Below are positions 3,966 through 61,032 of a stretch of DNA of 64,000 nt, piece after piece (the stretch's first letter is position 1; every line of letters starts with the position of its first letter). Origin of the DNA: a virus. The notes beneath the pieces are model-generated. The model was given only the letters and a program-made list of their open reading frames with translations, made no database searches and was not told the origin of the DNA. The DNA lies in the IMG/VR virus record IMGVR_UViG_3300045988_174992. The stretch is one strand, 5' to 3'. The position numbers and the translations under genes are program-made.

Positions 3966-4250
3966 ATGGCAAATACAACATTTCCTATTCATAAACTATT
4001 TAGAGTATATGAAACATTAGACCAGTTTGATGCAGAAGCAAATCACCCAGAAAATAAGATATGCTTCATCAAAGATAAGAGAATAATCTATGCTAATGGG
4101 GTTGAATATACCAATGAGCAGATGTATAATGATAATATAACTGATGATATCAAAGATGCTGCTAAATTCAAGACTGTTTATAATGCATTATTAGATGAAC
4201 TGAAGAACAGAAACTATATGGAGTTATCCAAAGATGGTGAAAATATTTAA
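3966..4250 (+). CDS. N-terminal-module-only fibre paralogue (probable remnant of a fourth BspA-like gene)
   Basis: 94 aa. IHKLFRVYETLDQFDAEANHPENKICFIKDKRIIYANGVEY plus linker DDIKDAAKFKTVYNALLDELKNRNYM align to residues 1-75 of the 4234 and 6251 ORFs. It stops where the repeat-bearing part should begin and overlaps the next start by 17 nt. Confidence 0.5.
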   Translation: MANTTFPIHKLFRVYETLDQFDAEANHPENKICFIKDKRIIYANGVEYTNEQMYNDNITDDIKDAAKFKTVYNALLDELKNRNYMELSKDGENI

Positions 4251-5433
4251 AAACTATGATACATTATCCCAATTCAATGATGAATCTATACACCCAGAAA
4301 ACAAGATATGTTTGATAAAAGATAAAGGTGTAATATATTCAAATGGTGTACAGTATTCACATTCTAAAATGCATATAATACAAGATATTGGAGATTCAGA
4401 TAACATAGTAGATAAGTTTAATGAATTGAGAAAAGGTTTATTAGAATCAAATCTAATGGCAGCTAGGACACCACATACTCTCATTTACTGGACAGGAGAT
4501 TCTAATACTATAGATATTAGTGGTACTACATATACAGCTGAACCAGATAAAGTAAACATAGATGGGGTAGAATACTACCAGTTAAAATTAGATAAAGATT
4601 TAAATAATAGTTTTAGTAATAATACTTTTACTAATTTAATATTTAAAGATGTTGATACAAGTAATGTTACTAATATGAATAATATGTTCGGTTATTGCAA
4701 TGCTCTTACTTCTTTGTATGTGTCTGAATTTGATACAAGTAATGTTACTAATATGGCTAATATGTTTTATTATTGCGAGGCTCTTACTTCTTTAGATGTA
4801 TCTAAATTTGATACAAGTAATGTTACTAATATGTTTAATATGTTTGGTAGATGCTGTGCTCTTACTTCTTTAGATGTATCTAAATTTGATACAAGTAAAG
4901 TTACTAATATGAGTAATATGTTCAATAATTGCAGTTCTCTTACTTCTTTGGATGTATCTAAATGGGATACAAGTAAAGTTACTGGTATGTATAGTATGTT
5001 TAATTATTGCATATCTATTACTTCTTTAGATGTATCTAAATTTGATACTAGTAAAGTTACTGATATGTCTAGTATGTTTCAACATTGCAGATTACTTACT
5101 TCTTTTGATGTGTCAAATTTTAATACAAGTAATGTTACTAATATGAATACTATGTTCTCTTCTTGCAGTGCTCTTACTTCTTTGGACGTATCTGGGTGGG
5201 ATACAAGTAATGTTATTTATATGGGTTATATGTTCAGGAATTGCTGGGCTCTTACTTCTTTGGACATATCTGGATGGGATACAAGTAATGTTACTAATAT
5301 GAATAGTATATTCTCTGGTTGCAGTTCTCTTAAAACAATAAGAATGGTAGGTTGTTCACAGACTACTATAGATAAGATAAAAGCACAACTATCTACAGAT
5401 GGTATAACTGGATGTACTATTGTAACAGAATAA
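4234..5433 (+). CDS. BspA-family / DUF285-type 26-residue-repeat protein (9 repeats), probable receptor-binding fibre
   Basis: 399 aa. Nine units of LTSLDVSKFDTSNVTNMxxMFxxCxx. N-terminal fibre module. C-terminus KTIRMVGCSQTTIDKIKAQLSTDGITGCTIVTE is shared with 5471 and 6251. Confidence 0.8.
   Translation: MVKIFKNYDTLSQFNDESIHPENKICLIKDKGVIYSNGVQYSHSKMHIIQDIGDSDNIVDKFNELRKGLLESNLMAARTPHTLIYWTGDSNTIDISGTTYTAEPDKVNIDGVEYYQLKLDKDLNNSFSNNTFTNLIFKDVDTSNVTNMNNMFGYCNALTSLYVSEFDTSNVTNMANMFYYCEALTSLDVSKFDTSNVTNMFNMFGRCCALTSLDVSKFDTSKVTNMSNMFNNCSSLTSLDVSKWDTSKVTGMYSMFNYCISITSLDVSKFDTSKVTDMSSMFQHCRLLTSFDVSNFNTSNVTNMNTMFSSCSALTSLDVSGWDTSNVIYMGYMFRNCWALTSLDISGWDTSNVTNMNSIFSGCSSLKTIRMVGCSQTTIDKIKAQLSTDGITGCTIVTE
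4627..5328 (+). repeat. Coding 78-bp (26-aa) repeat array, 9 units (approximate bounds)
   Basis: Periodicity of DTS[NK]VTxM motifs read in the translated ORF. Confidence 0.8.
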
Positions 5434-5470
5434 ATATAACAGAATAAAATTTTATATATAAAAAGAAATC

Positions 5471-6217
5471 ATGGCTAAATTATTTAGAAATTACAATACA
5501 TTGGTGGAATATGAAGCAGACACAAATAAACCTGTAAACACAGTTTGTTTCATTAAAGATGCAAAGGTCATCTATGTAGATGGCATACGATATTCATATA
5601 AGCAACTTGACTATCTACCACCTGCTATTAATGAAGCAGAAGCATTAGAATATATGGGTAAGATTATTAAGAATGCCCAGGAAGTAGGATTGATTGGTAT
5701 ACCAGTACCTAAACTAGTACCTGGTATATACTGGACAGGAGATTCTAATATTATAAGTATTAGTGGTACAGATTATACAGCTGAATCTGATAATATAACT
5801 ATAGATGGTGTAGAATACTATCAGTTAAAATTGGATAAAGATTTAGATAATGATTTTTACAACTTTAATTATAATTATTTTACTAATTTAATATTTAAAG
5901 ATGTTGATACAAGTAATGTTACTAATATGAGTAATATGTTCGAAGGTTGTTGGGATCTTACTTCTTTGGATGTTAGTAATTTTGATACAAGTAATGTTAC
6001 TGATATAGGATTTATGTTTAGTGATTGTGGTTCTCTTACTTCTTTAGATATGTCTGGATGGGATATAAGTAACGCCATCAAAATGAACAAAATGCTCACT
6101 GGTTGTAGTGCTCTTAAAACTATCAGAATGGTAGGTTGTTCACAGACTACTATAGATAAGATAAAAGCACAATTATCTACTGATGGTATAACTGGTTGCA
6201 CTATTGTAACAGAATAA
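5471..6217 (+). CDS. BspA-family / DUF285-type 26-residue-repeat protein (3 repeats)
   Basis: 248 aa. Same N-module (AKLFRNYNTLVEYE..TVCFIKDAKVIYVDGIRYS), three repeat units, identical C-terminal 33 aa. Confidence 0.8.
   Translation: MAKLFRNYNTLVEYEADTNKPVNTVCFIKDAKVIYVDGIRYSYKQLDYLPPAINEAEALEYMGKIIKNAQEVGLIGIPVPKLVPGIYWTGDSNIISISGTDYTAESDNITIDGVEYYQLKLDKDLDNDFYNFNYNYFTNLIFKDVDTSNVTNMSNMFEGCWDLTSLDVSNFDTSNVTDIGFMFSDCGSLTSLDMSGWDISNAIKMNKMLTGCSALKTIRMVGCSQTTIDKIKAQLSTDGITGCTIVTE
5879..6112 (+). repeat. Coding 78-bp repeat array, 3 units (approximate bounds)
   Basis: DTSNVTNM, DTSNVTDI and DISNAIKM units in the ORF. Confidence 0.7.
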
Positions 6218-6250
6218 ATTATAACAGAATAATTATAACAGAATAAAATC

Positions 6251-7225
6251 ATGCCGAAAATATTTAGAAACTACAATACATTATCTCAATTCAATACTGA
6301 ATCCACACATCCAGAAAACAAGATATGTTTCATTAAAGATAATGGAGTAATATATTCAAATGGTGTACAGTATTCACCTTATAAAATGGACACTATAGCT
6401 AATATAGAAGATTCAGATAACATAGTAGATAAGTTTAATGAATTGAGAAAAGGTTTATTAGAATCAAATCTAATGGAAGCTAGAACACTACATACTGTCA
6501 TATACTGGACTGGAGATTCTAATACTATAAACATTAGTGGTACTACATATACAGCTGAACTAGATAAAATAAATATAGATGGTGTAGTATACTATCAGTT
6601 AAAATTGTATAAAGATTTAGATAATAATTTTTATAAATTTAGTAATAATACTTTTGCTAATTTAATATTTAAAGATGTTGATACAAGTAAAGTAACTAAT
6701 ATGAATAATATGTTCCATTATTGCAATGCTCTTACTTCTTTGGATGTATCTAAATTTGATACTAGTAAAGTTACTAACATGTCATGGATGTTTGAATATT
6801 GCATGTCTCTTACTTCTTTAGATTTGAGTACATGGGATACTAGTAAGGTTACTAATATGAATGCTATGTTCCTTTATTGTAGTGCTCTTACTTCTTTGGA
6901 TTTGAGTGGATTTGATACTAGTAAAGTTACTGATATGAGTTTTATGTTCAGTAATTGCAGTTCTCTTACTTCTTTGGATTTGAGTGGATTTGATACTAGT
7001 AAAGTTACTGATATGAGTTTTATGTTCAGTAATTGCAGTTCTCTTACTTCTTTGGATTTGAGTGGATGGGATACAAGTAATGTTAATAATATGCGTAATA
7101 TGTTCAGTGGTTGTAGTGCTCTTAAAACAATCAGAATGGTAGGTTGTTTGCAGACTACTATAGATAAGATAAAAGCACAACTATCTAGTAATGGTATAAC
7201 TGGATGCACTATTGTAACAGAATAA
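6251..7225 (+). CDS. BspA-family / DUF285-type 26-residue-repeat protein (6 repeats)
   Basis: 324 aa. Same N-module and near-identical C-terminus (one Ser-to-Leu change and STD-to-SSN). Contains a perfect internal duplication. Confidence 0.8.
   Translation: MPKIFRNYNTLSQFNTESTHPENKICFIKDNGVIYSNGVQYSPYKMDTIANIEDSDNIVDKFNELRKGLLESNLMEARTLHTVIYWTGDSNTINISGTTYTAELDKINIDGVVYYQLKLYKDLDNNFYKFSNNTFANLIFKDVDTSKVTNMNNMFHYCNALTSLDVSKFDTSKVTNMSWMFEYCMSLTSLDLSTWDTSKVTNMNAMFLYCSALTSLDLSGFDTSKVTDMSFMFSNCSSLTSLDLSGFDTSKVTDMSFMFSNCSSLTSLDLSGWDTSNVNNMRNMFSGCSALKTIRMVGCLQTTIDKIKAQLSSNGITGCTIVTE
6885..7066 (+). repeat. Perfect 78-bp tandem duplication (2.3 copies) inside the repeat array
   Basis: 6885-6962 is identical to 6963-7040, base for base. 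A third copy matches for 26 nt (7041-7066). Encodes LTSLDLSGFDTSKVTDMSFMFSNCSS twice. Confidence 0.95.
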
Positions 7226-8892: not shown

Positions 8893-8925
8893 TTATAATA
8901 TAGAAAAAAGCCTTAATTTTTCAAA
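8893..8925 (-). promoter_or_regulatory. Promoter-family member P1
   Basis: Minus strand reads TTTGAAAAATTAAGGCTTTTTTCTATATTATAA. Sits 14 nt upstream of ATG 8879. The upstream box overlaps the 3' end of the preceding gene. Confidence 0.6.
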
Positions 8926-9787: not shown

Positions 9788-9818
9788 GAATATAGAAAAA
9801 AATGCAGGAAATTTCAAA
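9788..9818 (-). promoter_or_regulatory. Promoter-family member P2
   Basis: Minus strand reads TTTGAAATTTCCTGCATTTTTTTCTATATTC, upstream of 9281-9739. Confidence 0.65.
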
Positions 9819-10708: not shown

Positions 10709-11347
10709 TTATTTGTCTTTAATAAGTTCACTCTTATTGTTATCAAAAACCATATCTTTTTCTTCAATTTCCAACTTTATTTTATCATCCATATATTTTA
10801 CAATATTGCTTGATCTAGTTCTCTTGAAGATATCCCATAAGTCATATAGCAATCCATCATCTGATGTGTTTGTAACATCAAATTCTGACCAATCAACAAT
10901 GAACCTTAGATTTTCCAATGCATAATTCTTAAGATCATCTTGTTCACCTTTAAAGTTGTCATCTAATGATTTGTCAAAGCCAAATGTACAATGCAATCCA
11001 TCTTTTGCATCTTCTTTCTTTTCAAACTCAAATCTAGAATCTATAATATTATCAGCATTAGCACCAAAATATTCTTTAGCTAAATCATCATCAGATGGCA
11101 TGCTTTCAAGAAGCAAATCAGATATATATTGATTGATATCATCATCTGTATAGTCTTCTGGTACTTCTATTACAAAAATACCTTTTCGGTTTTCTGGATC
11201 TTTCACCTTCCAAATAGCTTCAAAGTCATTCAATCTGATAGTCTGATCTCTATCTTCATTTAGAGCAAAAGGAGAGTTCGTTGCCAAGCTCTCCTTCATA
11301 TATTCTACTAACTGTTTCATAGTTTTATCCAATTCTAATTTGTTCAT
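10709..11347 (-). CDS. Hypothetical acidic protein
   Basis: 212-aa ORF. Its start overlaps the stop of the 11344 ORF by 4 nt. Confidence 0.7.
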   Translation of the reverse strand: MNKLELDKTMKQLVEYMKESLATNSPFALNEDRDQTIRLNDFEAIWKVKDPENRKGIFVIEVPEDYTDDDINQYISDLLLESMPSDDDLAKEYFGANADNIIDSRFEFEKKEDAKDGLHCTFGFDKSLDDNFKGEQDDLKNYALENLRFIVDWSEFDVTNTSDDGLLYDLWDIFKRTRSSNIVKYMDDKIKLEIEEKDMVFDNNKSELIKDK

Positions 11348-11634
11348 GATAATGGTCCTTCATGACCTTTCATTCTGCCATTTTTCTTCAAACAAGCATC
11401 AAATACTTTTGATGAACTTGCTTTTGATTTAGCAGATTCCCAATCTTCTCTATTTACAAATATAGATTCAGGATATTTCTTGTAATCTGTATACCATCTT
11501 ATATCATATTTATCTACAAGTCTCCATACATCTATCATCTCATTGAGTTCAAGAACATTTTCATTATCTGTAGGATCCATTTTTGTAGGAGCATCACATT
11601 TCTTCTCCAACAGCATACATACTAAACTTCTCAT
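11344..11634 (-). CDS. Hypothetical protein
   Basis: 96-aa ORF. Abuts the stop of 11635-12321. Confidence 0.6.
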   Translation of the reverse strand: MRSLVCMLLEKKCDAPTKMDPTDNENVLELNEMIDVWRLVDKYDIRWYTDYKKYPESIFVNREDWESAKSKASSSKVFDACLKKNGRMKGHEGPLS

Positions 11635-12321
11635 TTATAAATCTTTATGGTTTGGATTCATTGCCTTACAGATAGCATTGATAGCAGCTTTATCATCTTC
11701 TGATAAATACTTTAAGCAATCATCATCATGTCTACCACCTTTTTCTTGCATCAAATATACTGGAATGAAATTATCTGTATCTATAATATAGAAAAATTCC
11801 ACACGACCCGTATTAGTAAATAATTCTACAAAAGTAAATGGCTTCTTTGCTTCTAAATCATTTATCTTTTCAGCTATTCTACTGAATTTATTTGATATCT
11901 TTCTCCAATTACCTTCTGATATGATAGATTGTCGTAAGAAGATTTGTCTATCTCCACTTTTATTGGATGCAACATAAACATTAGAGAAGAATTCCAAATC
12001 ATCATTTTGTATTTCAAGAGCTGTACCTCTGCTAAGATCTCTCAAAATTGCACCACCTCTCCAATTCTTAGCTAATGCTTTAAGTCTAACAATAGATTTC
12101 TTATCGACATTATAGTAGATGTTGAATTTCTTTTCTTCATCATCTGGATTTTCGTTCATCAATTCTTTATCAATATTATCTTTAAATGCCTGCAAGAACT
12201 TTTCTGCTCGAGGATCTCCAAGTTTCTTTGCTTTCTTAGCAGCATTCAAATATGTTTCACCTTTCAATTCAAAAACATATTCATCAAGTTTTTCGTTTGG
12301 ATATTCCGAAATGCTAATCAT
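11635..12321 (-). CDS. Hypothetical protein
   Basis: 228-aa ORF in an operon-like array. Confidence 0.7.
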   Translation of the reverse strand: MISISEYPNEKLDEYVFELKGETYLNAAKKAKKLGDPRAEKFLQAFKDNIDKELMNENPDDEEKKFNIYYNVDKKSIVRLKALAKNWRGGAILRDLSRGTALEIQNDDLEFFSNVYVASNKSGDRQIFLRQSIISEGNWRKISNKFSRIAEKINDLEAKKPFTFVELFTNTGRVEFFYIIDTDNFIPVYLMQEKGGRHDDDCLKYLSEDDKAAINAICKAMNPNHKDL

Positions 12322-12622
12322 TTTTTCCTTTATTTAATGCATTTATAGTGTCTATAATTTTCTTAAGAATATAGATATTGTCATAGTTGTCTGGTAATCC
12401 TTTTGCATCATCATTCATCATATCAGTCAATGCATTGAAGTTGATTCCACTGTCATCTACCAGTTTCTTGAAACCTTCTATATCTTTCTGGTTTGGTGCT
12501 TCTTTCATGAATGCGTCTAATGAAGATAATTCTATTCCTTTAGACCAATTGTCAAATTTCCATTGAATGTTGTCACCATCCAATTCTTCTTTCATGACTA
12601 CATAGCTCTTAAGATTAATCAT
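12314..12622 (-). CDS. Hypothetical protein
   Basis: 102-aa ORF with a TAG stop. Overlaps both neighbours by a few nt. Confidence 0.6.
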   Translation of the reverse strand: MINLKSYVVMKEELDGDNIQWKFDNWSKGIELSSLDAFMKEAPNQKDIEGFKKLVDDSGINFNALTDMMNDDAKGLPDNYDNIYILKKIIDTINALNKGKND

Positions 12623-12990
12623 CGCTTTTTACCAGTATTTTTGAACCAATCATACAACTGTTCTGCAAAGTCAACTTTTTTAAAATTGAATGCAACCTTC
12701 ATAGTATCATAACTAGAATCATGAATTTCTATATACAGATATTCTTTTCCACTTATTGTTTCTGTATGAGCATCAAATGAAATTTCTTTGCTTTGACTTG
12801 AAGTGATCCAATCTTCTTTATTAGGACCACCATCACTGTACATATTCAGATTAGATACTAATTCTGATATGGCTTTGCTTTTTGACAACTTGGATAATTC
12901 TATATACTTGTCAATGAATTGCTTGAGAGTAATCTTCATTGTATATCTTTCAATGCTACTCTCAAGCAAATATTCAGATAAACTTTTCAT
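12619..12990 (-). CDS. Hypothetical protein with CTS-like N-terminal leader (MKSLSEYLLE)
   Basis: 123 aa. The leader is shared with six other ORFs. Weak similarity to its 12992 neighbour (FKKVD motif). Confidence 0.65.
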   Translation of the reverse strand: MKSLSEYLLESSIERYTMKITLKQFIDKYIELSKLSKSKAISELVSNLNMYSDGGPNKEDWITSSQSKEISFDAHTETISGKEYLYIEIHDSSYDTMKVAFNFKKVDFAEQLYDWFKNTGKKR

Positions 12991-12991
12991 C

Positions 12992-13372
12992 TTACTTACA
13001 ATTCTTTATGAATTTCTTAGCAGCTGATGTCAATCCAATTTTCTCTATCTTGAATGTAAACCAATCTTTATCATCTACTTTCTTGAAGTATATGAATAAT
13101 GAAATGAAGCTACCAAAGTTGTCCTCATACTTGAATTCAAACTTTTCATTCAAATTCTTCTTAATATATTCTACCATCTGTTCAGGTTTCTTGAACTTTG
13201 GATTACCATCATTGAATTCAAAAGTATCAGATGCAATAGAGCTTACAAGATTGTCTACTGTCAACTTCTTTGAATCTTTCTTTATTAAAGCATCAAGAAA
13301 ATCTTGCATTGTTGAAATGCAAGAATATTCTTTTGCTTTAGATTCTGAAATATATTCTGTTAATGATTTCAT
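12992..13372 (-). CDS. Hypothetical protein with CTS-like N-terminal leader (MKSLTEYISE)
   Basis: 126 aa. Leader as above. Confidence 0.65.
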   Translation of the reverse strand: MKSLTEYISESKAKEYSCISTMQDFLDALIKKDSKKLTVDNLVSSIASDTFEFNDGNPKFKKPEQMVEYIKKNLNEKFEFKYEDNFGSFISLFIYFKKVDDKDWFTFKIEKIGLTSAAKKFIKNCK

Positions 13373-13378
13373 AATATT

Positions 13379-14578
13379 TTACTCACGATATGCAGTATCA
13401 TTGTCATTTATACGAAATACTGATGGATCTGCATTTCTCTGATCTTCATCATTCAAACACTCTTTATAGAGAGAATACAACTCAGCAAATGCTTTATTCA
13501 ACTCTGGAGTATTCTTAATGTACTGAAGAACTTTGAAATTAGAATTAGTAACTTCTGATGGATTCTTCATACCATACTTAGCCATAATCTGCTTTGCTTT
13601 AAGCTTTTCATGACCAAACAATCCATTCATACTATAGAATACATCAAGCTGCTTTTCAGTAAATTTCTTCTCAAGCATCTTAACAATCATCTTCCAAAGC
13701 TTAGCAATATCTTGCTGGTCGAGTGAAGCATCTGCATCTTCTTTAGAGTCAACCTTATCAAAGATTCCCTTGCCTTCATCTCCACCACCAATAGGTGATT
13801 CACCGGATACTGAAGTCTGCTTTGTATTTCTACCTGTATCTTTACGTTCCTTATTCTGAACAGAAACTGGAATACGTACTAAGTGTGAAGTATTCTTGAT
13901 ATTTTCAAGGATTACAATGCGAATCAAATAGCTAGCATAACTCAAGAAAGTGAATGCCTTACGCTTCTTCATTTCATCTTTCAATTCTCCAGCCATCTCT
14001 TCTGCTTCAGCATTCTTTCCTCCACGCTTCTTAGCAGTCTCTTCAGAAGACTTACCATATTGGTTCATTGCAATTGTAAGACCTTCCATACCGAAAGCAA
14101 ACAAATCGTCAAGAGAGAAGCTAGACTTTCCATTGAATCCACGAGCAATCTTCCAAACCAATGGAGTATACTTCTTAGCTACAGCATCACGACCCTTCTT
14201 AGTCTTCAAATCAAGCAATATCTCATCTGGTGAAATCTCATTCTTGATAATTGCGTTGAATTGCTCTTCAGTCTGAAATACTGGTACTTCAAGAAGACGG
14301 TGAGCCTTAGCAAGTGTTCCAATCCACTTGTACAATTCCTGCAACTTAGGATCTTTTGGTTTACCCTTACCATAGAAATTTTGCAATGAGCCAAGCTCCT
14401 TCATATATGTAGCATTGTTTACAATCAACCAATTGATGATTTCTTTAGCCTCAACAGAAATGAACTTGTCTGCTGTAGTAAGATATGTCTTAAGCTTAGC
14501 AGATGGAATGAAATCCAAAGTATCATTCTGTACATCAAGTGACTTAGCTTCTGCAACAAATTCTGATAATTTCTTCAT
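13379..14578 (-). CDS. Sigma-70-family RNA polymerase sigma factor (regions 2-4) with CTS-like leader (MKKLSEFVAE)
   Basis: Region 2-like YTPLVWKIARGF..SLDDLFAFGMEGLTIAMNQY. Region 2.4/3-like FLSYASYLIRIVILENIKNTSHLVRIPVSV (compare FSTYATWWIRQAI..RTIRIP). Region 4-like LTEKQLDVFYSMNGLFG..KAKQIMAKYGM..SEVTNSNFKVLQYIK. Confidence 0.8.
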   Translation of the reverse strand: MKKLSEFVAEAKSLDVQNDTLDFIPSAKLKTYLTTADKFISVEAKEIINWLIVNNATYMKELGSLQNFYGKGKPKDPKLQELYKWIGTLAKAHRLLEVPVFQTEEQFNAIIKNEISPDEILLDLKTKKGRDAVAKKYTPLVWKIARGFNGKSSFSLDDLFAFGMEGLTIAMNQYGKSSEETAKKRGGKNAEAEEMAGELKDEMKKRKAFTFLSYASYLIRIVILENIKNTSHLVRIPVSVQNKERKDTGRNTKQTSVSGESPIGGGDEGKGIFDKVDSKEDADASLDQQDIAKLWKMIVKMLEKKFTEKQLDVFYSMNGLFGHEKLKAKQIMAKYGMKNPSEVTNSNFKVLQYIKNTPELNKAFAELYSLYKECLNDEDQRNADPSVFRINDNDTAYRE

Positions 14579-14665: not shown

Positions 14666-14698
14666 TTGAAATATATCAAGTACATGTTCTATTTTATA
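14666..14698 (+). promoter_or_regulatory. Promoter-family variant, plus strand (only plus-strand copy seen)
   Basis: TTGAAATAT-N12-TTCTATTTTATA, about 105 nt upstream of ATG 14806. Back-to-back with minus-strand P3. Confidence 0.45.
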
Positions 14699-14707
14699 TA
14701 ACGAGAT

Positions 14708-14737
14708 GAATATAGAACAATAGGATAAAATTTCAAA
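14708..14737 (-). promoter_or_regulatory. Promoter-family member P3 (sigma-factor operon)
   Basis: Minus strand reads TTTGAAATTTTATCCTATTGTTCTATATTC, about 130 nt upstream of ATG 14578. Confidence 0.65.
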
Positions 14738-18459: not shown

Positions 18460-18705
18460 ATGAAAAAATTAAGTGAATTGGTAAATGAAAAGCTATCTGA
18501 TATAGAAGGTAAATGGGATCCACCAGAAGGATTGTTTGCAAAGAACAATCCTAGAGAGATAGCTCAAATACTTTTAGATGCTTCAGATTCAGAAGGTCAA
18601 GCAATGAAAAGACTTGTATTCTATATGAACAGAGCAGGAGAAGATTGTCCTAATAAAACAGTTTTGAATAAAGTAAAAGATATATTGAGAAGCAATACAA
18701 AATGA
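18460..18705 (+). CDS. DUF3175-like small protein with CTS-like leader (MKKLSELVNE)
   Basis: 81 aa. AMKRLVFYMNRAGEDCPNKTVLNKV resembles the DUF3175 signature (..L.FYINRAGKNL..) from memory. Confidence 0.5.
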   Translation: MKKLSELVNEKLSDIEGKWDPPEGLFAKNNPREIAQILLDASDSEGQAMKRLVFYMNRAGEDCPNKTVLNKVKDILRSNTK

Positions 18706-18732: not shown

Positions 18733-19068
18733 TTATGCATTCTTAATTTTTGTTAATTCATCATTGAGACTATTTAATATTTTCTTTTGTTGTTTTACTA
18801 ATTTAGGGAATTTAAACAACATTTTTATTGAAGGATTTTCTTGTAATTGTTTTATTTCTTTAAATACAGGCACCATATCTTTTAAATGCTTAACAATAAT
18901 TTCTTTTGCTTTATCAAGTTCATCCTGATCAAGTTTTCTATCAGCATTTTTTTCTGTACTTTTAATTATAAATTCAGCAATGCCATCAAAATCACTATTA
19001 TCATTCAAACCTTGTAATAACACTGAAAGTTCATCTTTAAAATCAGTATTTTGATTTAGTTCTTTCAT
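18733..19068 (-). CDS. Hypothetical protein
   Basis: 111-aa ORF. Confidence 0.6.
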   Translation of the reverse strand: MKELNQNTDFKDELSVLLQGLNDNSDFDGIAEFIIKSTEKNADRKLDQDELDKAKEIIVKHLKDMVPVFKEIKQLQENPSIKMLFKFPKLVKQQKKILNSLNDELTKIKNA

Positions 19069-19105
19069 TTATGAATAAATTTAATGATTTCATTTTATAT
19101 ATTAT

Positions 19106-19573: not shown

Positions 19574-19822
19574 TTATTTCATCAAATCAATAAGGTACTT
19601 CTTAGCTTCCTTATGAGTGATTTCATTAATATCAACATCACCAACAATGTCAATAACACCTCTAAGATCATTTCTGAATGTTTCTACAGTATATTCTTTC
19701 TTAGGATCTGAGTACTCATCATAAAATCCAAGCTTCTGCTTAGGATCCATACCTGCTAATCTGTTATATGCTTGAGAAAGCTTTATTGATTTTCCTTCAA
19801 GAATTTCTACTAATGTCTTCAT
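19574..19822 (-). CDS. Hypothetical protein with CTS-like leader (MKTLVEILE)
   Basis: 82 aa. Paralogue of 19327-19545 plus about 10 extra N-terminal residues. Confidence 0.6.
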   Translation of the reverse strand: MKTLVEILEGKSIKLSQAYNRLAGMDPKQKLGFYDEYSDPKKEYTVETFRNDLRGVIDIVGDVDINEITHKEAKKYLIDLMK

Positions 19823-20580: not shown

Positions 20581-20610
20581 TAATATAGAAAAGTTGAATT
20601 AAAATTCAAA
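20581..20610 (-). promoter_or_regulatory. Promoter-family member P4a
   Basis: Minus strand reads TTTGAATTTTAATTCAACTTTTCTATATTA. Confidence 0.6.
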
Positions 20611-20637: not shown

Positions 20638-20666
20638 CATATAGAACAATCTTCTAAAATTTCAAA
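20638..20666 (-). promoter_or_regulatory. Promoter-family member P4b (tandem with P4a)
   Basis: Minus strand reads TTTGAAATTTTAGAAGATTGTTCTATATG. Overlaps the stop of the NUDIX gene. Confidence 0.55.
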
Positions 20667-21249: not shown

Positions 21250-21278
21250 AATATAGAACAATTTTTAAAAATTTCAAA
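21250..21278 (-). promoter_or_regulatory. Promoter-family member P5
   Basis: Minus strand reads TTTGAAATTTTTAAAAATTGTTCTATATT. Sits 25 nt upstream of ATG 21225. Confidence 0.7.
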
Positions 21279-23433: not shown

Positions 23434-23462
23434 AAAATAGAACAATTATGATTTATTTCAAA
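23434..23462 (-). promoter_or_regulatory. Promoter-family member P6
   Basis: Minus strand reads TTTGAAATAAATCATAATTGTTCTATTTT. Confidence 0.6.
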
Positions 23463-23486: not shown

Positions 23487-25127
23487 TTATGCACTTGCAC
23501 TTCCTTGCATATCTATTATCTTTCTAGCTGTATCATTTATCATAAGATGTTGGCTTGTAGGATACTGTTGCAGTAATTCTGATACATTATCTATATAAGA
23601 ATCAAAAAGCTTGAAGTTAGTAACTGTACCTGGTATACCATTTATCATTACATCTTGCTTTTCATCTTCTACCATTTCTACATTCCATTTTGCTACTTTA
23701 TGTGCTGTCAAATTATTCAAGTCAAACTTGTAATGTGCTGGTTGCAACTTATATAGAGGGATATTTTCATTATAAGAATATTCCGAAACTCCTAATTCTA
23801 CTACATTCCTAGATTTAGACCATCTTAAATATATGAAATAATGATTGTCAGTAATATTGGCATCTTGTTTAGGTAAGTATACAGAACAATCTTCTACATT
23901 ATCTAAACTTACTTTGATTCTTCTGTTTGTCATTTTCAATCTAAGTATGATATGACCTATCTTTATGAGTTCAGAATCATAATCATACATTCCATTCAAA
24001 CCAACAATAATGCTTGTACTACCTTCTTCACCACAATATTTTCTTTGATATACTATCTTATTCTTAAGTCTGTATAGTGATGATGGATCAAACTTGTAAC
24101 ATCTGTCACTTATCAATGTTCCTCTTTGATAGATATTTGTATCTACAAAGTTTGTACCTTCTGATGTAACATACTTTCGGCAAGAATCGGATTCATATAC
24201 AGGGTACATGCCATTTCCAGAATATGTTGGAGCTTCTGTTGTTTCTTCTCCACTATCTAATCCTTCTTTATCTCCAAACAAATCTTCATACTTTGTCTTT
24301 ACTAAGCTATCTATAGTAGAATCAAAATCTCCTAAGTCAACAGAACCCTTTTCTTGATATTTTACTAATGCCAATTTGAATGTAGTATTGTTCCACATCA
24401 ATGAACCATTCTTCTCTTCGTATGCTTCATTTACCATCCACATCCTTTTCATCATTGGAATATATATCAAATCACCTTCCATTGGCTGTGCAGTAATTCC
24501 AAAAGCCGTAGCAAACATTGTCTTGCTTATCTCGGTTTCCCAATCAGTTTGCCAATCTAATCCAAAATCAGAAAATTCTGGTTTGCTGCTTGGCATCTGA
24601 CCTTCATTTACTATAAGCTTTATCTGCTTTACTGATTCTACATTCATGAGAGTATACTCTTTAAACGTGATATCTTTAGAACCAGAATCAGGCTTAAGTT
24701 TGAAGTAGTATATAGGTATACCAATCATACAAGCAACGCTATCAGATAATGATTGCTGCAAAGCTATAGCTGAAGTAAGACCAGCATAAGGATTGTATTT
24801 GTTAGATGATTCACAAGATGGTGATGAGATGCTTGAAGCAATAGAAGTAGTATAGTCTACACTTTCATCACCATCTTTTACATCATTAACAACACCATTT
24901 ACTTTAAACTTTATGTAGAAATCAGATGGACTATCAACCAGTATTTTTTCTGCATCACCATAGGAAGCAAAACATGACCAATTGATACCATCATAACTCC
25001 ACGATACCTCTAAGCATGATGTATCATATTTTACATCATCACAACCAAGTATAGATATTGATGACATATCATTAATAGCCATTGTCAACAATACCTCTTG
25101 AGCAGGCATACAACTATTGAAATCCAT
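23487..25127 (-). CDS. Large hypothetical protein (possibly virion-associated)
   Basis: 546-aa ORF immediately downstream of the peptidoglycan hydrolase. No motif recognised. Confidence 0.7.
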   Translation of the reverse strand: MDFNSCMPAQEVLLTMAINDMSSISILGCDDVKYDTSCLEVSWSYDGINWSCFASYGDAEKILVDSPSDFYIKFKVNGVVNDVKDGDESVDYTTSIASSISSPSCESSNKYNPYAGLTSAIALQQSLSDSVACMIGIPIYYFKLKPDSGSKDITFKEYTLMNVESVKQIKLIVNEGQMPSSKPEFSDFGLDWQTDWETEISKTMFATAFGITAQPMEGDLIYIPMMKRMWMVNEAYEEKNGSLMWNNTTFKLALVKYQEKGSVDLGDFDSTIDSLVKTKYEDLFGDKEGLDSGEETTEAPTYSGNGMYPVYESDSCRKYVTSEGTNFVDTNIYQRGTLISDRCYKFDPSSLYRLKNKIVYQRKYCGEEGSTSIIVGLNGMYDYDSELIKIGHIILRLKMTNRRIKVSLDNVEDCSVYLPKQDANITDNHYFIYLRWSKSRNVVELGVSEYSYNENIPLYKLQPAHYKFDLNNLTAHKVAKWNVEMVEDEKQDVMINGIPGTVTNFKLFDSYIDNVSELLQQYPTSQHLMINDTARKIIDMQGSASA

Positions 25128-37191: not shown

Positions 37192-38049
37192 ATGAGTTGT
37201 GTACAAAATACAAATAATAGTTCTCCAGCACAAAAAGAAATCTCCATGGAGGAATACAATAAGAGAAAGCATAAAATAGAAGATCAAGTAGATTACCAGT
37301 TTATTCAAAGAATCATACAAGAACTGACACAAACTTGTGCTATAAATTTACCAATGCAACCATCAGCTATTCCACCATTGATTCTTCAAGCTGCTCAATA
37401 TTTCTGGGAAAATTGTGACCAGGCGATAGAAGAACGTTGGTATTGTCTCCCATTCAGAGAGTTTACAAAATGTGGTGCTAACATGATTGCTAAGTTGCCA
37501 CCGCAAATTCTTTCAGTAAACGGATTGTACAAAGCAACAGATAGTTGGTCTTATGGTGTCATGGGCGACTTTTCTTTAGAAAGAATGATACTGAACAATT
37601 CAGCTATAGCATCTGGTGTTGGTGGAAGCTTATCTGATGTGTATGGATCAGGTGGAGGATATACATTGACTGATGTTACAGCAGCATTGTATGAACTTGA
37701 TACTTTTGACTATATTTTTAATACTCCTATAACATATAATTACAATACTTACAGTAATGATCTTGTTGTGTTAGGAGCTATCGGTCATTCTGATTTGATG
37801 CTCAATGTATATAAGAGACTTAAGATACAAGATCTGTACAAGAATTACTATTTCTTCAGATATTGTGTTTGCCTTGGCTTACGTTCTATGGCTACTATCC
37901 TTGGTACATTTGAATTTAAGTTGCCTGGTGGAGTTACTTTAAATTACAGTATATGGAGAGACATGGCCAATGAAGAAATGCAGAAGATAGATGAATGGAT
38001 TCAGAAGAATCATTCTGCTGACTACTTCATAAATACTAATACTATTTAA
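37192..38049 (+). CDS. Hypothetical protein (start trimmed from TTG 37183 to ATG 37192)
   Basis: 285-aa ORF at the head of a plus-strand block of large proteins. Confidence 0.65.
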   Translation: MSCVQNTNNSSPAQKEISMEEYNKRKHKIEDQVDYQFIQRIIQELTQTCAINLPMQPSAIPPLILQAAQYFWENCDQAIEERWYCLPFREFTKCGANMIAKLPPQILSVNGLYKATDSWSYGVMGDFSLERMILNNSAIASGVGGSLSDVYGSGGGYTLTDVTAALYELDTFDYIFNTPITYNYNTYSNDLVVLGAIGHSDLMLNVYKRLKIQDLYKNYYFFRYCVCLGLRSMATILGTFEFKLPGGVTLNYSIWRDMANEEMQKIDEWIQKNHSADYFINTNTI

Positions 38050-38290: not shown

Positions 38291-41200
38291 ATGGAATTCA
38301 TCGATCATACAGGACATATATACTCATTGAAGGATTGGCAAAATGAACCAATAGGATATGAATATGAAATAGGAAATTATGTAGACTGGTTCACTTCAGA
38401 TACAACTTCTCACAAGCTTAGTACAGACAGATACTATATTAAGCCTGTAAGAATCATAGTGAATTCTAATGACTTTATATCTGTAAAGATTAATAATGGT
38501 GGTAAATATGAATATGATATGAATGTTCCACATTTCTGGTTGCTAAGCTCTGCATACATACAGGATTGTATAGAGAACAACAGTAACATATTTGATCCTC
38601 TCAATATAGAAGAAAGTGAATTTCGTGATGAACTTTATACATACGATTTAACAGTAATAGATAATGTAGAAGTAGAAGGAAGAGAATCAACTGTATCAGT
38701 AGCTACATTTTATGTTGTCACACTAAGTCAAGAAGAAACTACTTGGCTAACTAATATCCTCATTCATATAACTACAGGAGAAGATTACAATGACAATATC
38801 TGGTGTCCTTATACTGTAGGTGCTGAATTCCACATGGAAGATAGTGAGCTTATCATAAATGGTAAGAATATGGGAATAAACATTCCTAAGGATCTAATGA
38901 AGTCAATATATTTTACTGATGTAAAATCTGACAGAATAGATGAAGAAGAATATTCTTATAAGTTAAAAGAACTTCTTCTAAACTATATGCATATTAGAGG
39001 AGAATGTGGAAACTATGAATCAGCTAAAGATTCTCTTGATTGGTTTGGCTATGGAAATCATATTACCATAAGAGGACTCAACCAAACTGACAACCAATTC
39101 TTAGAGCAATATATACAAGACAATTTTGATACTTTGTCTGACAATCTTTGGTCTTGGCAACATTTCAGAAAAGCTTCTGCTTATTCTATATGGATGGATA
39201 TAGACAGATATACAGAAGTTCTAGACAAGCAGTACTGGACAGAAGAGCTTATAGGAGAAGGTAAGCCTATTTCAGAAAACTTGTTTGATAAGATGGTTTA
39301 TGATAAGTTTGATGAACAAGACATAAAATTCTGGCGACCTTACTACAATTGGAGACTAGAAGATATGTACATAAAGATGTCGATGGTAGAGTATTACTGG
39401 AAGAAGTACTTCTTACCTATAATGACGACTATATCATCTAGTATGAAGCAACATTGCTGGATGAATGACATCAAATATATAGTAAGTCCTAGCATTCATG
39501 TTACAGAAACTCCTACTTGGATTGGAAGCACCAATACTTCCGTAAGATTTCAAGGATCTGATATAGTTTACATATACAACCAAGAATCTTACTTTGATGA
39601 ATGCTATAATGAGTTTTCAAATTCTGAAACATTAGGAAAGACAACAGAAAATCCAACAATATATATCAATGATATTTGTGCTAAGGTGCCAATTTGTTTC
39701 TTATCAAATGAAGATGAAGATTTCTTTGATGTAACTTTGGTACTTACAAAAGAGGGTAAGAAAATATATAGCTCATCATTCAGTTTCTTCCAACGAAAAG
39801 ATGATGTTGCTTATAAGAACTTCGTAATGATACCAAAGTCATTAGTAAAGTCATTCAATATGACTTATTGGATAGATAAGAAATACAGATTGTCAGTAAA
39901 CTGTAATGGAAACTGGTATTACTATGACTTCATGTTGAAAGCACCAGAATTCCAGTTGAAAGTAGGTACTTTAGAATACAAATATTTCAATTATACAGAA
40001 GTAAAAGAACTTAAACCTGGAGAAGAAGGATATCGAGATCCTAATGATCCAGAATTCGACAGTATGACAGAATCAGAGAAAGCAAACATAAATCTGTATA
40101 CAACAGAAAAATCATTGTTTTCACAGATAAAGTCTATAGAAGATGACTCAGTAAACTTCAATTCTTATATGTACCTTCCTGGATTAGCAGAAGTGAATGA
40201 CATAAGATTCTTTGACAAGTTGAAGTATATGATAGACAATGCTTCTTCTAATACTTCAAATAGTAATTCTAATAATGCTTCTACTAATACAATGAACAAT
40301 TTCTGCAACTATATTGCTTCTAAATGCTACATATATAATTTAGGAGTAAAGAACAGTAAAGTTGTATATAAGAAAGGAAATTCTGTCATCCCAATATTCA
40401 TGTTCAATAATGGTCTTGATATACCTGATAACCAAGGATATTCTTTAAGCAAATTCTATGTAGATGTATTGTTTGATGTGGACTCTAATAATGAATATTA
40501 TGCTAAGATAAGATTAGATTTGAATGATCTGAGTACTACAAAACCTAATGAATGTGTCAATCTTCATGAATATACTATATCAAACAATGATTTGATAATG
40601 ATGAAGAAAGATATTGGTTTAGGTGACCCAGCTTACAACAAGCAAGGAAATATTGATTGGGATGCAACTTCTGACAAATGGAAGCTTTTCTATATAGATG
40701 AACATCTTAGACACAAGTCAACAGTAACTATACGATTAGCTACTACAGGTGAAATAAAGCTACCAAATGGAAAAACTTATGAATTTGGTGGATATACTTT
40801 GTCAGGTGTTCCTAGAATATATCAAGATATTGCTATTCCTATCTGGAATACTAGTTCAGATTCAGTATGCAATATGGAATGCAACTGTCCTTGGAAATCT
40901 GAATGTAAGTTTAGAGGAGATTATGTAAAGACAGATTATGATTCTACTCCTAAATTAGATGAAGTAGACATGAACATGAGGCAAGAAATCACATCAGAAA
41001 ATGTAAAGAAGTCTATAGATTCACTTATCAATAGCATGAGGCAAACCGTGTCTACATCTAACAACAAAAAATATCTGAACAGAATGCATATCTATGATTT
41101 GTATTTGTATAAGATGAATGATGTAGAAAAAAGAAAGAGACTTGGTTTGAATATAAGTAAGATATCAAAACTTAAGTACAATAGTAAGATATATGATACC

Positions 41201-41809
41201 AAGTGGTATTCTCCAAACCACTGGGAACAACCTTCTGAACTGGTAGAACTCTATAGAATGTTCTTTAATGATGATGGTACAGAAAAGTTCAGTATAGGAG
41301 ATGACAATGCATTCAATTATGATTTCTATCTTATGCATGATGACACTAATTGGTTTGCTGTTCTCATATCGCAAGATACAGAAGACAAACTTATTGGTGA
41401 CATGGATTTAGATCCTCATGACAAGATAGAATATTGTCCGGATGATGAAACAAAGATTGTAATGAAAAAATACAGATCATCTGATACTTTCTTAATAAAC
41501 AGAATGGTATTGGAAGAAAAATATCCAGTAAATCATTTTAAAGAAGATGACTTGATATTCGCTAGTATTGACAATGTGAAATTCCCATTCATATTGGATA
41601 AGACGACTAAATGGTCAGTAAAGAATTTGTCATTGTTGAATAAGAACAAGCCATCTATAACTTCTAATTCTAATGCTATGATACTTAGCTTATATGATGA
41701 AGCTTCTAAGAATGTTTCAGGTTATTATAATATAGATGTAAGATACAGCATAGAAGGAAATGTTGACCACCAACAGAAAAAACATACAAGAATACTTATA
41801 GAAAAATGA
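38291..41809 (+). CDS. Very large hypothetical protein (virion-type)
   Basis: 1172-aa ORF. No catalytic motif seen. The stop overlaps the next start (ATGA). Confidence 0.75.
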   Translation: MEFIDHTGHIYSLKDWQNEPIGYEYEIGNYVDWFTSDTTSHKLSTDRYYIKPVRIIVNSNDFISVKINNGGKYEYDMNVPHFWLLSSAYIQDCIENNSNIFDPLNIEESEFRDELYTYDLTVIDNVEVEGRESTVSVATFYVVTLSQEETTWLTNILIHITTGEDYNDNIWCPYTVGAEFHMEDSELIINGKNMGINIPKDLMKSIYFTDVKSDRIDEEEYSYKLKELLLNYMHIRGECGNYESAKDSLDWFGYGNHITIRGLNQTDNQFLEQYIQDNFDTLSDNLWSWQHFRKASAYSIWMDIDRYTEVLDKQYWTEELIGEGKPISENLFDKMVYDKFDEQDIKFWRPYYNWRLEDMYIKMSMVEYYWKKYFLPIMTTISSSMKQHCWMNDIKYIVSPSIHVTETPTWIGSTNTSVRFQGSDIVYIYNQESYFDECYNEFSNSETLGKTTENPTIYINDICAKVPICFLSNEDEDFFDVTLVLTKEGKKIYSSSFSFFQRKDDVAYKNFVMIPKSLVKSFNMTYWIDKKYRLSVNCNGNWYYYDFMLKAPEFQLKVGTLEYKYFNYTEVKELKPGEEGYRDPNDPEFDSMTESEKANINLYTTEKSLFSQIKSIEDDSVNFNSYMYLPGLAEVNDIRFFDKLKYMIDNASSNTSNSNSNNASTNTMNNFCNYIASKCYIYNLGVKNSKVVYKKGNSVIPIFMFNNGLDIPDNQGYSLSKFYVDVLFDVDSNNEYYAKIRLDLNDLSTTKPNECVNLHEYTISNNDLIMMKKDIGLGDPAYNKQGNIDWDATSDKWKLFYIDEHLRHKSTVTIRLATTGEIKLPNGKTYEFGGYTLSGVPRIYQDIAIPIWNTSSDSVCNMECNCPWKSECKFRGDYVKTDYDSTPKLDEVDMNMRQEITSENVKKSIDSLINSMRQTVSTSNNKKYLNRMHIYDLYLYKMNDVEKRKRLGLNISKISKLKYNSKIYDTKWYSPNHWEQPSELVELYRMFFNDDGTEKFSIGDDNAFNYDFYLMHDDTNWFAVLISQDTEDKLIGDMDLDPHDKIEYCPDDETKIVMKKYRSSDTFLINRMVLEEKYPVNHFKEDDLIFASIDNVKFPFILDKTTKWSVKNLSLLNKNKPSITSNSNAMILSLYDEASKNVSGYYNIDVRYSIEGNVDHQQKKHTRILIEK

Positions 41810-42321
41810 AAAGTTTAACTAATTACATTTATGAAAGCATAAATAATGTATCAGAACAGTTCCAAAGCAATAGTTCTAATAAAAATGGAATGTTCTTACA
41901 TAAAGATGGATTACGCCAATCAGAAGACTTTAATTTCAACCCAGGTGAAAAGGCATTATGCATTGCTTATGATACTGATGGATATCGTATTCAAATCCGT
42001 GGCATATTAGAAATTGCTAAAGTCCTTAAGAGTAGTATTAAAGTTAAGGCTACTACAGATGATGGAACTGAATTTTATAATAAAATGAAATTTGATAATA
42101 CAGGTATTGCCATTGTGAAGACAAACAGCAAGTATCGCGGTAAATCTGTAAAATATTATGTTCTCTACAATAAAGATCTTATTGACAGTGAAAAGGATGG
42201 TAAAGATATTAAAGAAATATTAGATAAAGGTACATGTTCTTGGGGATTTGATCTTCCAGAAAATAAAGAATTAAGAAAGGATTATATCAAAAACCTCAAA
42301 AAGTATCTTAAAGAAATCTAA
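41806..42321 (+). CDS. Hypothetical protein with CTS-like leader (MKSLTNYIYE)
   Basis: 171 aa. Translationally coupled to 38291-41809. Confidence 0.65.
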   Translation: MKSLTNYIYESINNVSEQFQSNSSNKNGMFLHKDGLRQSEDFNFNPGEKALCIAYDTDGYRIQIRGILEIAKVLKSSIKVKATTDDGTEFYNKMKFDNTGIAIVKTNSKYRGKSVKYYVLYNKDLIDSEKDGKDIKEILDKGTCSWGFDLPENKELRKDYIKNLKKYLKEI

Positions 42322-42325: not shown

Positions 42326-42766
42326 ATGAAAAGTTTAACTAACTATATTTGCGAAGCTATGAAGAAGAAATTCAATGGCTTCGCAATTCTCAAACCAGAA
42401 TTCTTGGATATCAAAGATGATTTTGAAGATATGTTAGAAGATGCTGGTTGGGATATAACTAACTATAAGACTATAAAGATGAACTTGGATGAAGCAAGAG
42501 AGCTTTATAAAGTACATGAAAAGGAAGATTTCTATGATGATCTTTGTCATTACATGAGTTCAGGTAACTGTATAGCTTACAAACTTTATAAAGATTGTAA
42601 AGACCCTATAAAAGACTTGAAGAAAGTAAAAGATGAAGTAAGAGACAAATATGGTAAAGATGATATGAAGAACTGCATGCATAGTTCTGATTCTAAAGAA
42701 AATGTGGAAAGAGAAGCAGATATCTGTTTCAAAATAAATAATGAACTAGACAAAGATGAAGATTAA
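42326..42766 (+). CDS. ndk: Nucleoside-diphosphate-kinase-like protein with CTS-like leader (MKSLTNYICE)
   Basis: GFAILKPEF (compare ERTFIAIKPDG), HYMSSGNCIAYKL (compare YMxSGPVVAMV), NCMHSSDSKENVEREADICF (compare NxxHGSDSxxSAxREIxxWF, active-site His). Confidence 0.65.
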   Translation: MKSLTNYICEAMKKKFNGFAILKPEFLDIKDDFEDMLEDAGWDITNYKTIKMNLDEARELYKVHEKEDFYDDLCHYMSSGNCIAYKLYKDCKDPIKDLKKVKDEVRDKYGKDDMKNCMHSSDSKENVEREADICFKINNELDKDED

Positions 42767-45238: not shown

Positions 45239-45267
45239 AATATAGAAACAAATAAAGAAATTTCAAA
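45239..45267 (-). promoter_or_regulatory. Promoter-family member P11
   Basis: Minus strand reads TTTGAAATTTCTTTATTTGTTTCTATATT. Confidence 0.7.
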
Positions 45268-46940: not shown

Positions 46941-46993
46941 AAAACCTGTTCTGTATCTTAAATTTTTTACATTTAAAATATAGAACAGGTTTT
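46941..46993 (-). terminator. 12-bp perfect inverted repeat enclosing the -10-type box of P12
   Basis: AAAACCTGTTCT (46941-46952) pairs with AGAACAGGTTTT (46982-46993). 29-nt loop. Confidence 0.5.
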
Positions 46994-47005
46994 ATAAATT
47001 TCAAA
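46977..47005 (-). promoter_or_regulatory. Promoter-family member P12
   Basis: Minus strand reads TTTGAAATTTATAAAACCTGTTCTATATT. Confidence 0.7.
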
Positions 47006-57597: not shown

Positions 57598-57626
57598 AAT
57601 ATAGAAAAAGGTTAAGAAATTTCAAA
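57598..57626 (-). promoter_or_regulatory. Promoter-family member P13
   Basis: Minus strand reads TTTGAAATTTCTTAACCTTTTTCTATATT. Confidence 0.7.
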
Positions 57627-58848: not shown

Positions 58849-58863
58849 AGTTTTAAAGTTTAG

Positions 58864-58928
58864 TGGACCATGTGAGATTCGAACTCACGTCCAACCGAAG
58901 TTATCGATTGTCAAATCCGTAATGGCCC
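58864..58928 (-). tRNA. Atypical tRNA-like element (65 nt, no D-arm; anticodon-loop triplet AAC)
   Basis: Minus strand: acceptor GGGCCAT/ATGGTCC (7 bp, G3:U70). Canonical T-arm GTGAG-TTCGAAT-CTCAC. Stem CAATCG/CGGTTG with the 7-nt loop ATAACTT. Only 11 nt lie between the acceptor and this stem, so no D-arm. No encoded CCA. Confidence 0.4.
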
Positions 58929-61002: not shown

Positions 61003-61032
61003 GTTATTTATTATCTATTCTTTGACATGTTA

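Follow-up and report, generated by a model that had tools for sequence, protein, structure and literature searches.

Bacteriophage T4 loads the internal proteins IPI, IPII, IPIII and Alt into its head by means of a capsid targeting sequence (CTS), an N-terminal leader of about ten residues that starts M-K and is removed by the prohead protease gp21. IPII and IPIII begin MKTYQEFIAE followed by A, and IPI begins MKTFKEF, with ITE/A further along (here and below, a slash stands behind the Glu of a cleavage site or of its candidate counterpart). The protease cleaves after I/L-x-E; residues 4 and 7 of the CTS drive targeting and residues 8 and 10 drive processing, and T4 proteins that bear just this short leader are cut once and retained. 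The internal proteins of T-even phages are highly diverse, with only the targeting sequence conserved among them. Here we describe a leader that resembles the CTS on eight otherwise unrelated genes, one of which encodes a sigma-70-family factor, in a stretch of 64,000 nucleotides from the virus record IMGVR_UViG_3300045988_174992 in IMG/VR (the whole stretch is called the window below). An earlier note on this DNA had cited the sequence MKTYQEFIAE and the cleavage rule of the prohead protease, and both proved correct.

Two other described systems are close to the one considered here. In phiKZ, 201phi2-1 and SPN3US, inner-head and ejected proteins are likewise loaded via N-terminal propeptides that a gp21-related protease cuts after Glu, and phiKZ-like phages deliver their virion RNA polymerase in this way. 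However, their propeptides mostly exceed 100 residues, whereas the leader in the window is short and T4-like, and their cleavage motif is S/A/G-x-E, unlike the I/L-x-E of T4. Furthermore, phiKZ-like phages have a multisubunit polymerase of their own and no sigma factor, while the predicted passenger in the window is a sigma factor for the host enzyme. The 'group 2' jumbo phages, with gp23-type capsids and without an RNA polymerase of their own, resemble the window in that they encode an RpoD-like sigma factor, which presumably redirects host RNA polymerase. In the published view these sigma factors are products of the infected cell, whereas the sigma family of the window carries a conserved leader resembling a capsid targeting sequence. 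The jumbo-phage reviews consulted, which assume synthesis after infection, do not mention a virion-packaged sigma factor. The Jug phages (2025-26; genomes of 360-402 kb) are presented in their paper with no mention of a sigma factor.

Eight intact genes of the window begin M-K-x-L-x-x-[YFLI]-[ILVM]-x-E, one of them in a nine-residue form, and one frameshifted and two degenerate copies accompany them. The earlier note had listed seven shared N-termini; all seven are present at the starts it named, and the 203-aa protein is an eighth member. The copies are as follows.

13379..14578, minus strand: sigma-70-family factor, 399 aa, MKKLSEFVAE/A (leader codons at 14549-14578).
12992..13372, minus strand: 126-aa protein, MKSLTEYISE/S; its presence varies between strains.
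12619..12990, minus strand: 123-aa protein, MKSLSEYLLE/S; its presence also varies between strains.
10709..11320, minus strand: 203-aa acidic protein (pI 4.25), MKQLVEYMKE/S, the eighth member.
18460..18705, plus strand: DUF3175 protein, 81 aa, MKKLSELVNE/K; strain variants differ at positions 7 and 8 only, and conservatively.
19574..19822, minus strand: 82-aa protein with the nine-residue leader MKTLVEILE/G, whose length and form are those of leaders in the Sphingobacterium phage PAU, such as MKTLVQLFE.
41806..42321, plus strand: 171-aa protein, MKSLTNYIYE/S; its start overlaps the stop of a gene for a 1172-aa protein.
42326..42766, plus strand: nucleoside diphosphate kinase (NDK), 146 aa, MKSLTNYICE/A, the leader being an N-terminal extension.
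18733..19093, minus strand: 111-aa gene (start 19068) behind an out-of-frame leader, MKSLNLFINE (19064-19093); the ninth, frameshifted copy.
11344-11634, minus strand: degenerate leader MRSLVCMLLE.
11635-12321, minus strand: degenerate leader MISISEYPNE.

For the 203-aa gene, the open reading frame (ORF) in the window extends to 11347, but we take 11320 as the true start because in other strains that Met is the first after an upstream stop codon and gene callers use it. Among the seven consecutive minus-strand genes that run from the sigma gene to 10709, four have a clear leader and two have a degenerate leader. The frame of MKSLNLFINE is broken by one extra A in a run of A (GAAGAA vs GAAAGAA): the in-frame leader is absent in the window and in contig L002 but present in strain L007, where it opens a 119-aa protein. 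This frameshift could be real variation or a homopolymer error. The degenerate MISISEYPNE may be compared with MISISQLYES, found on the gp144 orthologue of a PAU-like contig.

The recurrence of the motif is far above chance. A degenerate DNA pattern for the leader, ATGAARNNNTTRNNNRANNNNNTNNNNGAR, had seven matches in the window against 0.02 expected from 100 shuffles, all of them at ORF starts, and a stricter pattern had four against 0.00. The codons differ between copies (TCA, AGT and TCT for Ser; GAA and GAG for Glu) and the DNA upstream of the tagged start codons is not conserved, which indicates that selection acts on the leader peptide. Strain variants alter only the free positions of the leader or exchange F for L and V for I, and A, S or G follows the Glu in seven of the eight leaders, in keeping with the sites cut by T4 gp21. 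Behind the leader the proteins are unrelated, as the earlier note had supposed: once the first 12 residues were removed, the bearers in the window gave no mutual BLASTP match at 1e-4. Two of its family assignments could also be confirmed, that of the DUF3175 protein at 7e-7 and that of the NDK by PF00334 at 4.4e-20, where residues 19-136 of the protein align to profile positions 4-131, so that the leader precedes the domain.

The likeness to T4 that the earlier note had pointed out extends to the constrained positions of the window leaders, which are the targeting and processing positions of T4. In both cases positions 4 and 7 are hydrophobic or aromatic, positions 8-10 read I/L-x-E with A or S next, and the leader sits on proteins that are otherwise unrelated, dispensable and polymorphic. 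The leader of the sigma factor is identical to the T4 CTS in six of ten residues. On the other hand, the window leaders as a group share only four to six of ten residues with MKTYQEFIAE, and the cargo differs. The internal proteins of T4 are basic, whereas those tagged here are mostly acidic and include a full sigma-70-family factor and an NDK, and relatives of the window phage carry many more tagged genes than T4, up to 14 in a row. The host of the window phage is probably a member of the Bacteroidota, and packaging and cleavage are predicted for its tagged proteins.

The sigma factor matches phrog_351 at 1.5e-11, and 218 relatives of it turned up among 1.8 billion representative proteins searched. 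A profile built from 43 of these matched RpoS and SigA structures (E=4e-13) over regions 2 and 4. Region 2 corresponds to profile positions 137-235, and 19 of the 43 relatives match Pfam Sigma70_r2 at E<=0.01; the window protein by itself gives E=0.022, under the cut-off. Region 4 corresponds to a second stretch (profile 248-343 on RpoS 222-312, i-Evalue 0.01), and its support is weaker than that of region 2, as only one relative passes Pfam Sigma70_r4. The AlphaFold model has a mean pLDDT of 81, and its top 50 Foldseek matches are all sigma chains; alignments of about 380-410 columns to sigma chains in holoenzymes, at probability 1.00, also support region 4. The family assignment made in the earlier note is thus supported by the PHROG match, the family profile, Sigma70_r2 in relatives and Foldseek: by these comparisons the protein is a member of the sigma-70 family, for which binding to core polymerase and promoter direction are predicted. 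We also considered whether it might be an equivalent of the T4 late sigma factor gp55 and rejected this, since full-length sigma structures are matched in region 2 as well as in region 4.

The leader is a conserved feature of this sigma family. Relatives down to about 25% identity begin M-K-x-[LF]-[ST]-x-[IFLY]-[IVL]-x-E-[AS], and residues 1-11 stand out in the family alignment as a conserved island, behind which comes a variable linker with gaps. Within the leader, positions 4, 7, 8 and 10 are constrained and positions 3, 5, 6 and 9 vary freely. In the AlphaFold model of the window protein, residues 4-12 form a helix that is followed by coil.

The phage to which the window belongs is tied to T4-type morphogenesis by its neck genes.

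23487..25127, minus strand: gp14-like neck protein of T4 type.
37192..38049, plus strand: gp13-like neck protein, a homologue of PTm1 ORF-002.

The gp13-like gene opens a same-strand run that is closed by the two tagged genes starting at 41806 and 42326. The nearest relatives of the neck protein are found in Bacteroidota jumbo phages, namely PAU (30% identical), the Tenacibaculum phages PTm1, PTm5 and pT24 and the Chryseobacterium phages MA9V; it also matches two uncultured huge phages.

Phage PAU (GenBank JQ362498) provides the strongest support for reading the leader as a propeptide, since there a leader of the same kind is carried by proteins deposited as scaffolding and internal capsid protein. 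In the 22-kb head region of PAU, 14 of 42 ORFs begin MK[TS][LI][TS].L[YF]E[AS]. These encode 14 unrelated small proteins (gp131-133, gp142-146, gp149, gp150, gp152-154 and gp164), among them gp152, which the depositors call 'scaffolding', and gp142 and gp154, which they call 'internal capsid protein'. The tagged genes adjoin those for the portal gp147, the protease gp151, annotated as a gp21-type capsid maturation protease, and the capsid protein gp156. Several PAU leaders bear a second site, KLNE/A, and the PAU capsid protein has KLNE/S near its N-terminus; the PAU-like contig keeps both. The PAU leader has the form of MKTLVEILE/G in the window and is one residue shorter than MKSLTEYISE/S, and the remaining window leaders likewise match it with an insertion of one residue. 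The two phages differ in the setting of the tagged genes: those of PAU lie around the portal, protease and capsid genes, with the annotated scaffold gene as one of their number, whereas those of the window adjoin the sigma gene and follow the neck gene. Furthermore, PAU and the other cultured phages have no homologue of the window sigma family, as judged by tblastn with the window sigma factor and one distant homologue. Our literature search found no paper describing the PAU leader.

All relatives checked encode a protease of the gp21 family (Peptidase_S77) with conserved catalytic His and Ser columns; gp21-type proteases are present in PAU, PTm1, pT24, the huge-phage sequences LR756500 and LR756504 and the Lak phages. 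Capsid proteins, where annotated or tested (PTm1, PAU and the PAU-like contig), are of the gp23 type. From these relatives we infer a gp21-type protease for the window phage as well. In LR756504 (L142, ORF start 19761) and LR756500 (L140, ORF start 19914) the protease is fused to a scaffold part in which a repeat of 11 residues, Y(S/T)(E/N)Y(I/L/V)AE.LDK (for example YSEYIAE.LDK), recurs in long runs; the repeat resembles the T4 and window leaders. Judged by their sequence, these repeats look like repeated gp21-type sites.

Tagged genes next to a sigma gene are not restricted to the window. In IMG/VR contigs of 118-435 kb, up to 14 small genes in a row, all beginning MK[DNS]I..[FY]I.E, come after a homologue of the sigma gene, and a T4-like sheath gene lies about 8 kb upstream. 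Nine loci yielded 63 tagged proteins that fall into 35 unrelated families, nearly all of which consist of orthologues between phages and not of paralogues within a phage. Tagged orthologues of two window members, the 203-aa and the 171-aa protein, occur in such arrays; the former has orthologues in six other phages, all with the leader, and orthologues of the latter lie in the arrays of loci L235, L237 and L239. In the window phage itself, the tagged genes adjoining the sigma gene are gained and lost among strains. The N-terminal extension of the NDK, the gain or loss of a leader by a single-base frameshift and the spread of 63 proteins over 35 families together indicate that the leader is modular.

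A scan of IMG/VR with a strict leader pattern returned at least 120 loci; among those listed, most matches are true ORF starts, and T4-like genes for terminase, sheath, portal, gp2, gp4 or neck proteins are present at about a third of the loci. The profiles 'virion structural protein' and 'internal head protein' are matched from the first residue by a recurrent tagged family, whose members are 184-196 aa long. Its homologue in phage PA5oct is annotated as detected in virions by mass spectrometry, and the N-terminus of that homologue, MKSFRDYYDA, is without an I/L-x-E site. Pfam searches with the array proteins gave only weak hints, to ParB-like and DUF4365 domains. A tagged ParB-like protein of about 295 aa with the motif IDGHH occurs in the sigma arrays (L235 19166, L236 14781, L237 13838, L239 16108, and also L024) and on other viral contigs. 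Based on the shared IDGHH motif and one weak tblastn match, we take it to be the likely counterpart of PTm1 ORF-299, an untagged ORF situated between the portal gene and the protease-scaffold gene.

Considering the above results, we think it probable that the shared leader is a prohead-targeting propeptide of the T4 CTS type, removed by a gp21-type protease and marking a variable set of cargo proteins for packaging. During head assembly, the short amphipathic leader (M-K-x-L-x-x-aromatic/hydrophobic-I/L/V-x-E) would dock the protein onto the scaffolding core. The protease of the gp21 family (Peptidase_S77) would then cleave behind the Glu of an [ILV]-x-E site whose next residue is A, S or G, the leader would depart and the mature cargo would remain beside the DNA in the capsid. 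The analogy with T4 IPI-III and Alt suggests that the cargo could ultimately be expelled into the next host cell. It would comprise a complete sigma-70-family factor, the NDK, the DUF3175 protein and several small proteins, and for the cleaved sigma factor the predicted new N-terminus is AKSLDVQNDTLDFIPSAK.

Several observations weigh against this model. Docking, cleavage, retention in the virion and ejection of the tagged proteins are steps that we infer, and the PAU names 'internal capsid protein' and 'scaffolding' are labels given by those who deposited the sequence. The leader is not a clade-wide feature: it is absent in PTm1 (whole genome), LR756500, LR756504, Lak-A1 and about 2.2 Mb of protease-centred loci, and the relatives that lack it have proteases of the same type. 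With a median pI of 5.4, the tagged proteins are for the most part acidic, in contrast to the basic internal proteins of T4. The upstream motif of the sigma gene is shared with the chaperone genes and further non-structural genes and differs from that ahead of the neck operon, so late expression is not indicated for it. Finally, the prohead protease, scaffold and capsid genes of the window phage were not found in the roughly 100 kb covered (the window, its 10-kb flanks and fetched loci). Head proteins of T4, PTm1, PAU, pT24, Lak phages and LR7565xx, used as tblastn queries against the window, the 10-kb flanks and the loci of this phage, matched only the neck genes. A protein-database search with the PTm1 capsid protein gave 52 matches, none from a contig of about 280 kb. 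A search with a protease-domain alignment gave 2064 matches, of which the best 120 all lie in other clades, and one with PAU gp151 gave six, all PAU-like. Scanning IMG/VR with the protease alignment returned LR756500-like loci for all of the best 80. A DNA pattern for the protease had at least 120 matches; the window phage is not among the matches listed, which include PAU and a gut contig, L265, from a different phage.

Of the explanations that assign the leader another role, the first, which we regard as unlikely, is that it is a linear motif binding some other shared partner (RNA polymerase, the sliding clamp, the DnaK/DnaJ pair of the phage or a degradation machine) and serving to co-regulate or co-localise proteins that are expressed along with the sigma factor, with no role in the capsid. 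T4 offers a comparable case, since its gp55, gp33 and gp43 have in common a terminal peptide by which they bind the clamp. The operon-like tagged arrays directly downstream of the sigma gene would fit such a role, as would a sigma promoter motif of the kind found on non-structural genes, the DnaK and DnaJ encoded by the phage, and acidic cargo that includes enzymes without obvious use in a capsid. However, the motif always runs from Met1-Lys2 to [ILV]-x-E plus a small residue, the signature of a protease site, which binding would not need. The location of the PAU leader on annotated scaffold and internal capsid proteins amid portal, protease and capsid genes also argues against mere partner binding, as does the position of two window members in the run opened by a neck gene.

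It is likewise improbable, in our view, that the leader does target the prohead core but that the cargo consists of assembly parts which are degraded or expelled, as T4 gp22, gp67 and gp68 are, or which stay in the capsid and are inert in the next cell, with the sigma factor acting only where it is made. A folded sigma factor and an NDK would be unlikely parts of a scaffold, although the 203-aa tagged protein is indeed very acidic and scaffold-like, the annotated PAU scaffold itself bears the leader, and the YSEYIAE.LDK-type repeats in huge-phage scaffolds resemble it. Moreover, the retention of the leader by the sigma family across large distances argues for a purpose in targeting the sigma factor, and the single cut that leaves T4 proteins with only a short leader in the capsid also speaks against this reading. 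The last alternative, already raised in the earlier note as a translation-initiation feature, would make the shared 5' coding sequence a property of the mRNA or a leftover of cassette recombination with no peptide function, and we consider it very improbable: the leader codons are all A/T-rich, with AAA or AAG as the second codon, and the start region might matter for initiation given that no Shine-Dalgarno sequence is visible, but synonymous and six-fold-degenerate codon changes preserve the amino acids, constraint falls on positions 4, 7, 8 and 10 and not on 3, 5, 6 and 9, the copies have no upstream DNA in common, and the peptide pattern persists in sigma homologues at 25-45% identity across phages of differing G+C.

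If the leader is indeed a packaging propeptide, the phage may go further, packaging its own sigma factor and injecting it with the DNA so that host core RNA polymerase is redirected before phage genes are expressed. We put this forward tentatively, as a possibility that we consider rather doubtful. Candidate targets would be the lineage-specific TTGAAAT-N12/13-TTCTATAT sites, one of which lies ahead of the sigma gene itself, and the tagged arrays behind the sigma gene could then represent a co-delivered takeover kit. This promoter-like motif, TTGAAAT-N12/13-TTCTATAT(T), occurs upstream of many window genes. A loose pattern for it had 17 matches in the window against 1.7 in shuffles, and a tight pattern nine against 0.17. 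Sites of this type lie at the positions below.

57601-57625, minus strand: TTGAAAT-type site.
46980-47004, minus strand: TTGAAAT-type site.
45242-45266, minus strand: TTGAAAT-type site.
23437-23461, minus strand: TTGAAAT-type site.
21253-21277, minus strand: TTGAAAT-type site.
20641-20665, minus strand: TTGAAAT-type site.
20585-20609, minus strand: TTGAAAT-type site.
14712..14736, minus strand: TTGAAAT-type site TTGAAATTTTATCCTATTGTTCTAT, upstream of the sigma gene.
9792-9817, minus strand: TTGAAAT-type site.
8900-8924, minus strand: TTGAAAT-type site.
14666-14692, plus strand: TTGAAAT-type site.

The motif is also enriched in the flanks of the phage, in a 70%-identical relative (L233) and in a gut jumbo contig (L022), whereas PTm1, PAU and the more distant sigma-array phages lack it. 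Either a host sigma factor or that of the phage may read these sites. A second upstream motif, CG(Y)(T)CCCTG...GTGAA(T/A)ATTTAAC, is found near 37098 (plus strand), 9196 (minus) and 63532 (minus), and possibly at 21365 (plus). One copy precedes the gp13-like neck operon, which ends with the two tagged genes, and the motif may be a late promoter or an RNA element.

While the principle of a T4-type leader is already known, the packaged sigma factor is the new part of what our analysis predicts, and it can be tested. It bears on how large phages that have no RNA polymerase of their own begin transcription in hosts whose promoter rules are unusual. Were injection of the sigma factor true, it would add a third way to bootstrap phage transcription, beside the injected single-subunit polymerases of N4 and crAss-like phages and the multisubunit polymerases of phiKZ-like phages. 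More generally, if the leader works as in T4, it would be a readily spotted sequence tag, by which the packaged, and probably injected, proteins of uncultured jumbo and mega phages could be read off their genomes. With this tag, foreign proteins could also be directed into the capsids of Bacteroidota phages, as is done with the T4 sequence in E. coli, and PAU offers a cultured system in which its function can be tested.

The window has 31.6% G+C and about 77 genes, and 12 kb of it gave no megablast match to GenBank phages. Contigs from human-gut metagenomes (276-287 kb) and from IMG/VR (195-294 kb) encode an identical sigma-like protein, from which we conclude that the source is a human-gut jumbo phage of roughly 285 kb that is common in gut samples. 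In a public assembly collection the sigma protein is listed in 196 blocks, and a neighbouring 93-aa protein in 1608. The host is probably a member of the Bacteroidota, given the hosts of the relatives (Tenacibaculum, Chryseobacterium, Sphingobacterium and Prevotella) and the lack of visible Shine-Dalgarno sequences upstream of the window genes.

The window also encodes helicases, a dNMP kinase, a dUTPase, an RNA ligase, RNA-repair genes and a lysozyme-domain protein. A DnaJ and DnaK pair (59971-63058, minus strand) has its best match in the Lak megaphages; the DnaK is 58% identical to that of Lak megaphages and 45-50% identical to the bacterial matches annotated as dnaK in the same search. The Lak phages match the DnaK of the window phage but not its neck protein. 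Searches of the window with ARAGORN and Rfam gave no hits. A tRNA-like sequence, GGGCCAT...GAGTTCGAATCTCACATGGTCCAC, which neither of them calls, lies in the intergenic space upstream of the gene ending at 58848 (58863-58928, minus strand) and has a T-arm-like GTTCGAATC and a matching acceptor stem. On the 277-kb contigs, a TnpB-type gene (OrfB_IS605, with a Cas12f-like domain; L225 8707-9921) lies directly upstream of the first gene of the window. Two very large proteins, of 1172 aa (38291-41809, plus strand) and 1653 aa (49540-54501, plus strand), have no Pfam or PHROG match; the former comes after the gp13-like neck gene, holds an N/S-rich stretch and may be a fibre or whisker. Finally, three tandem paralogues with DUF285/LRR-like repeats (4234-7225, plus strand), whose number and length vary greatly among strains, may be receptor-binding or surface proteins.

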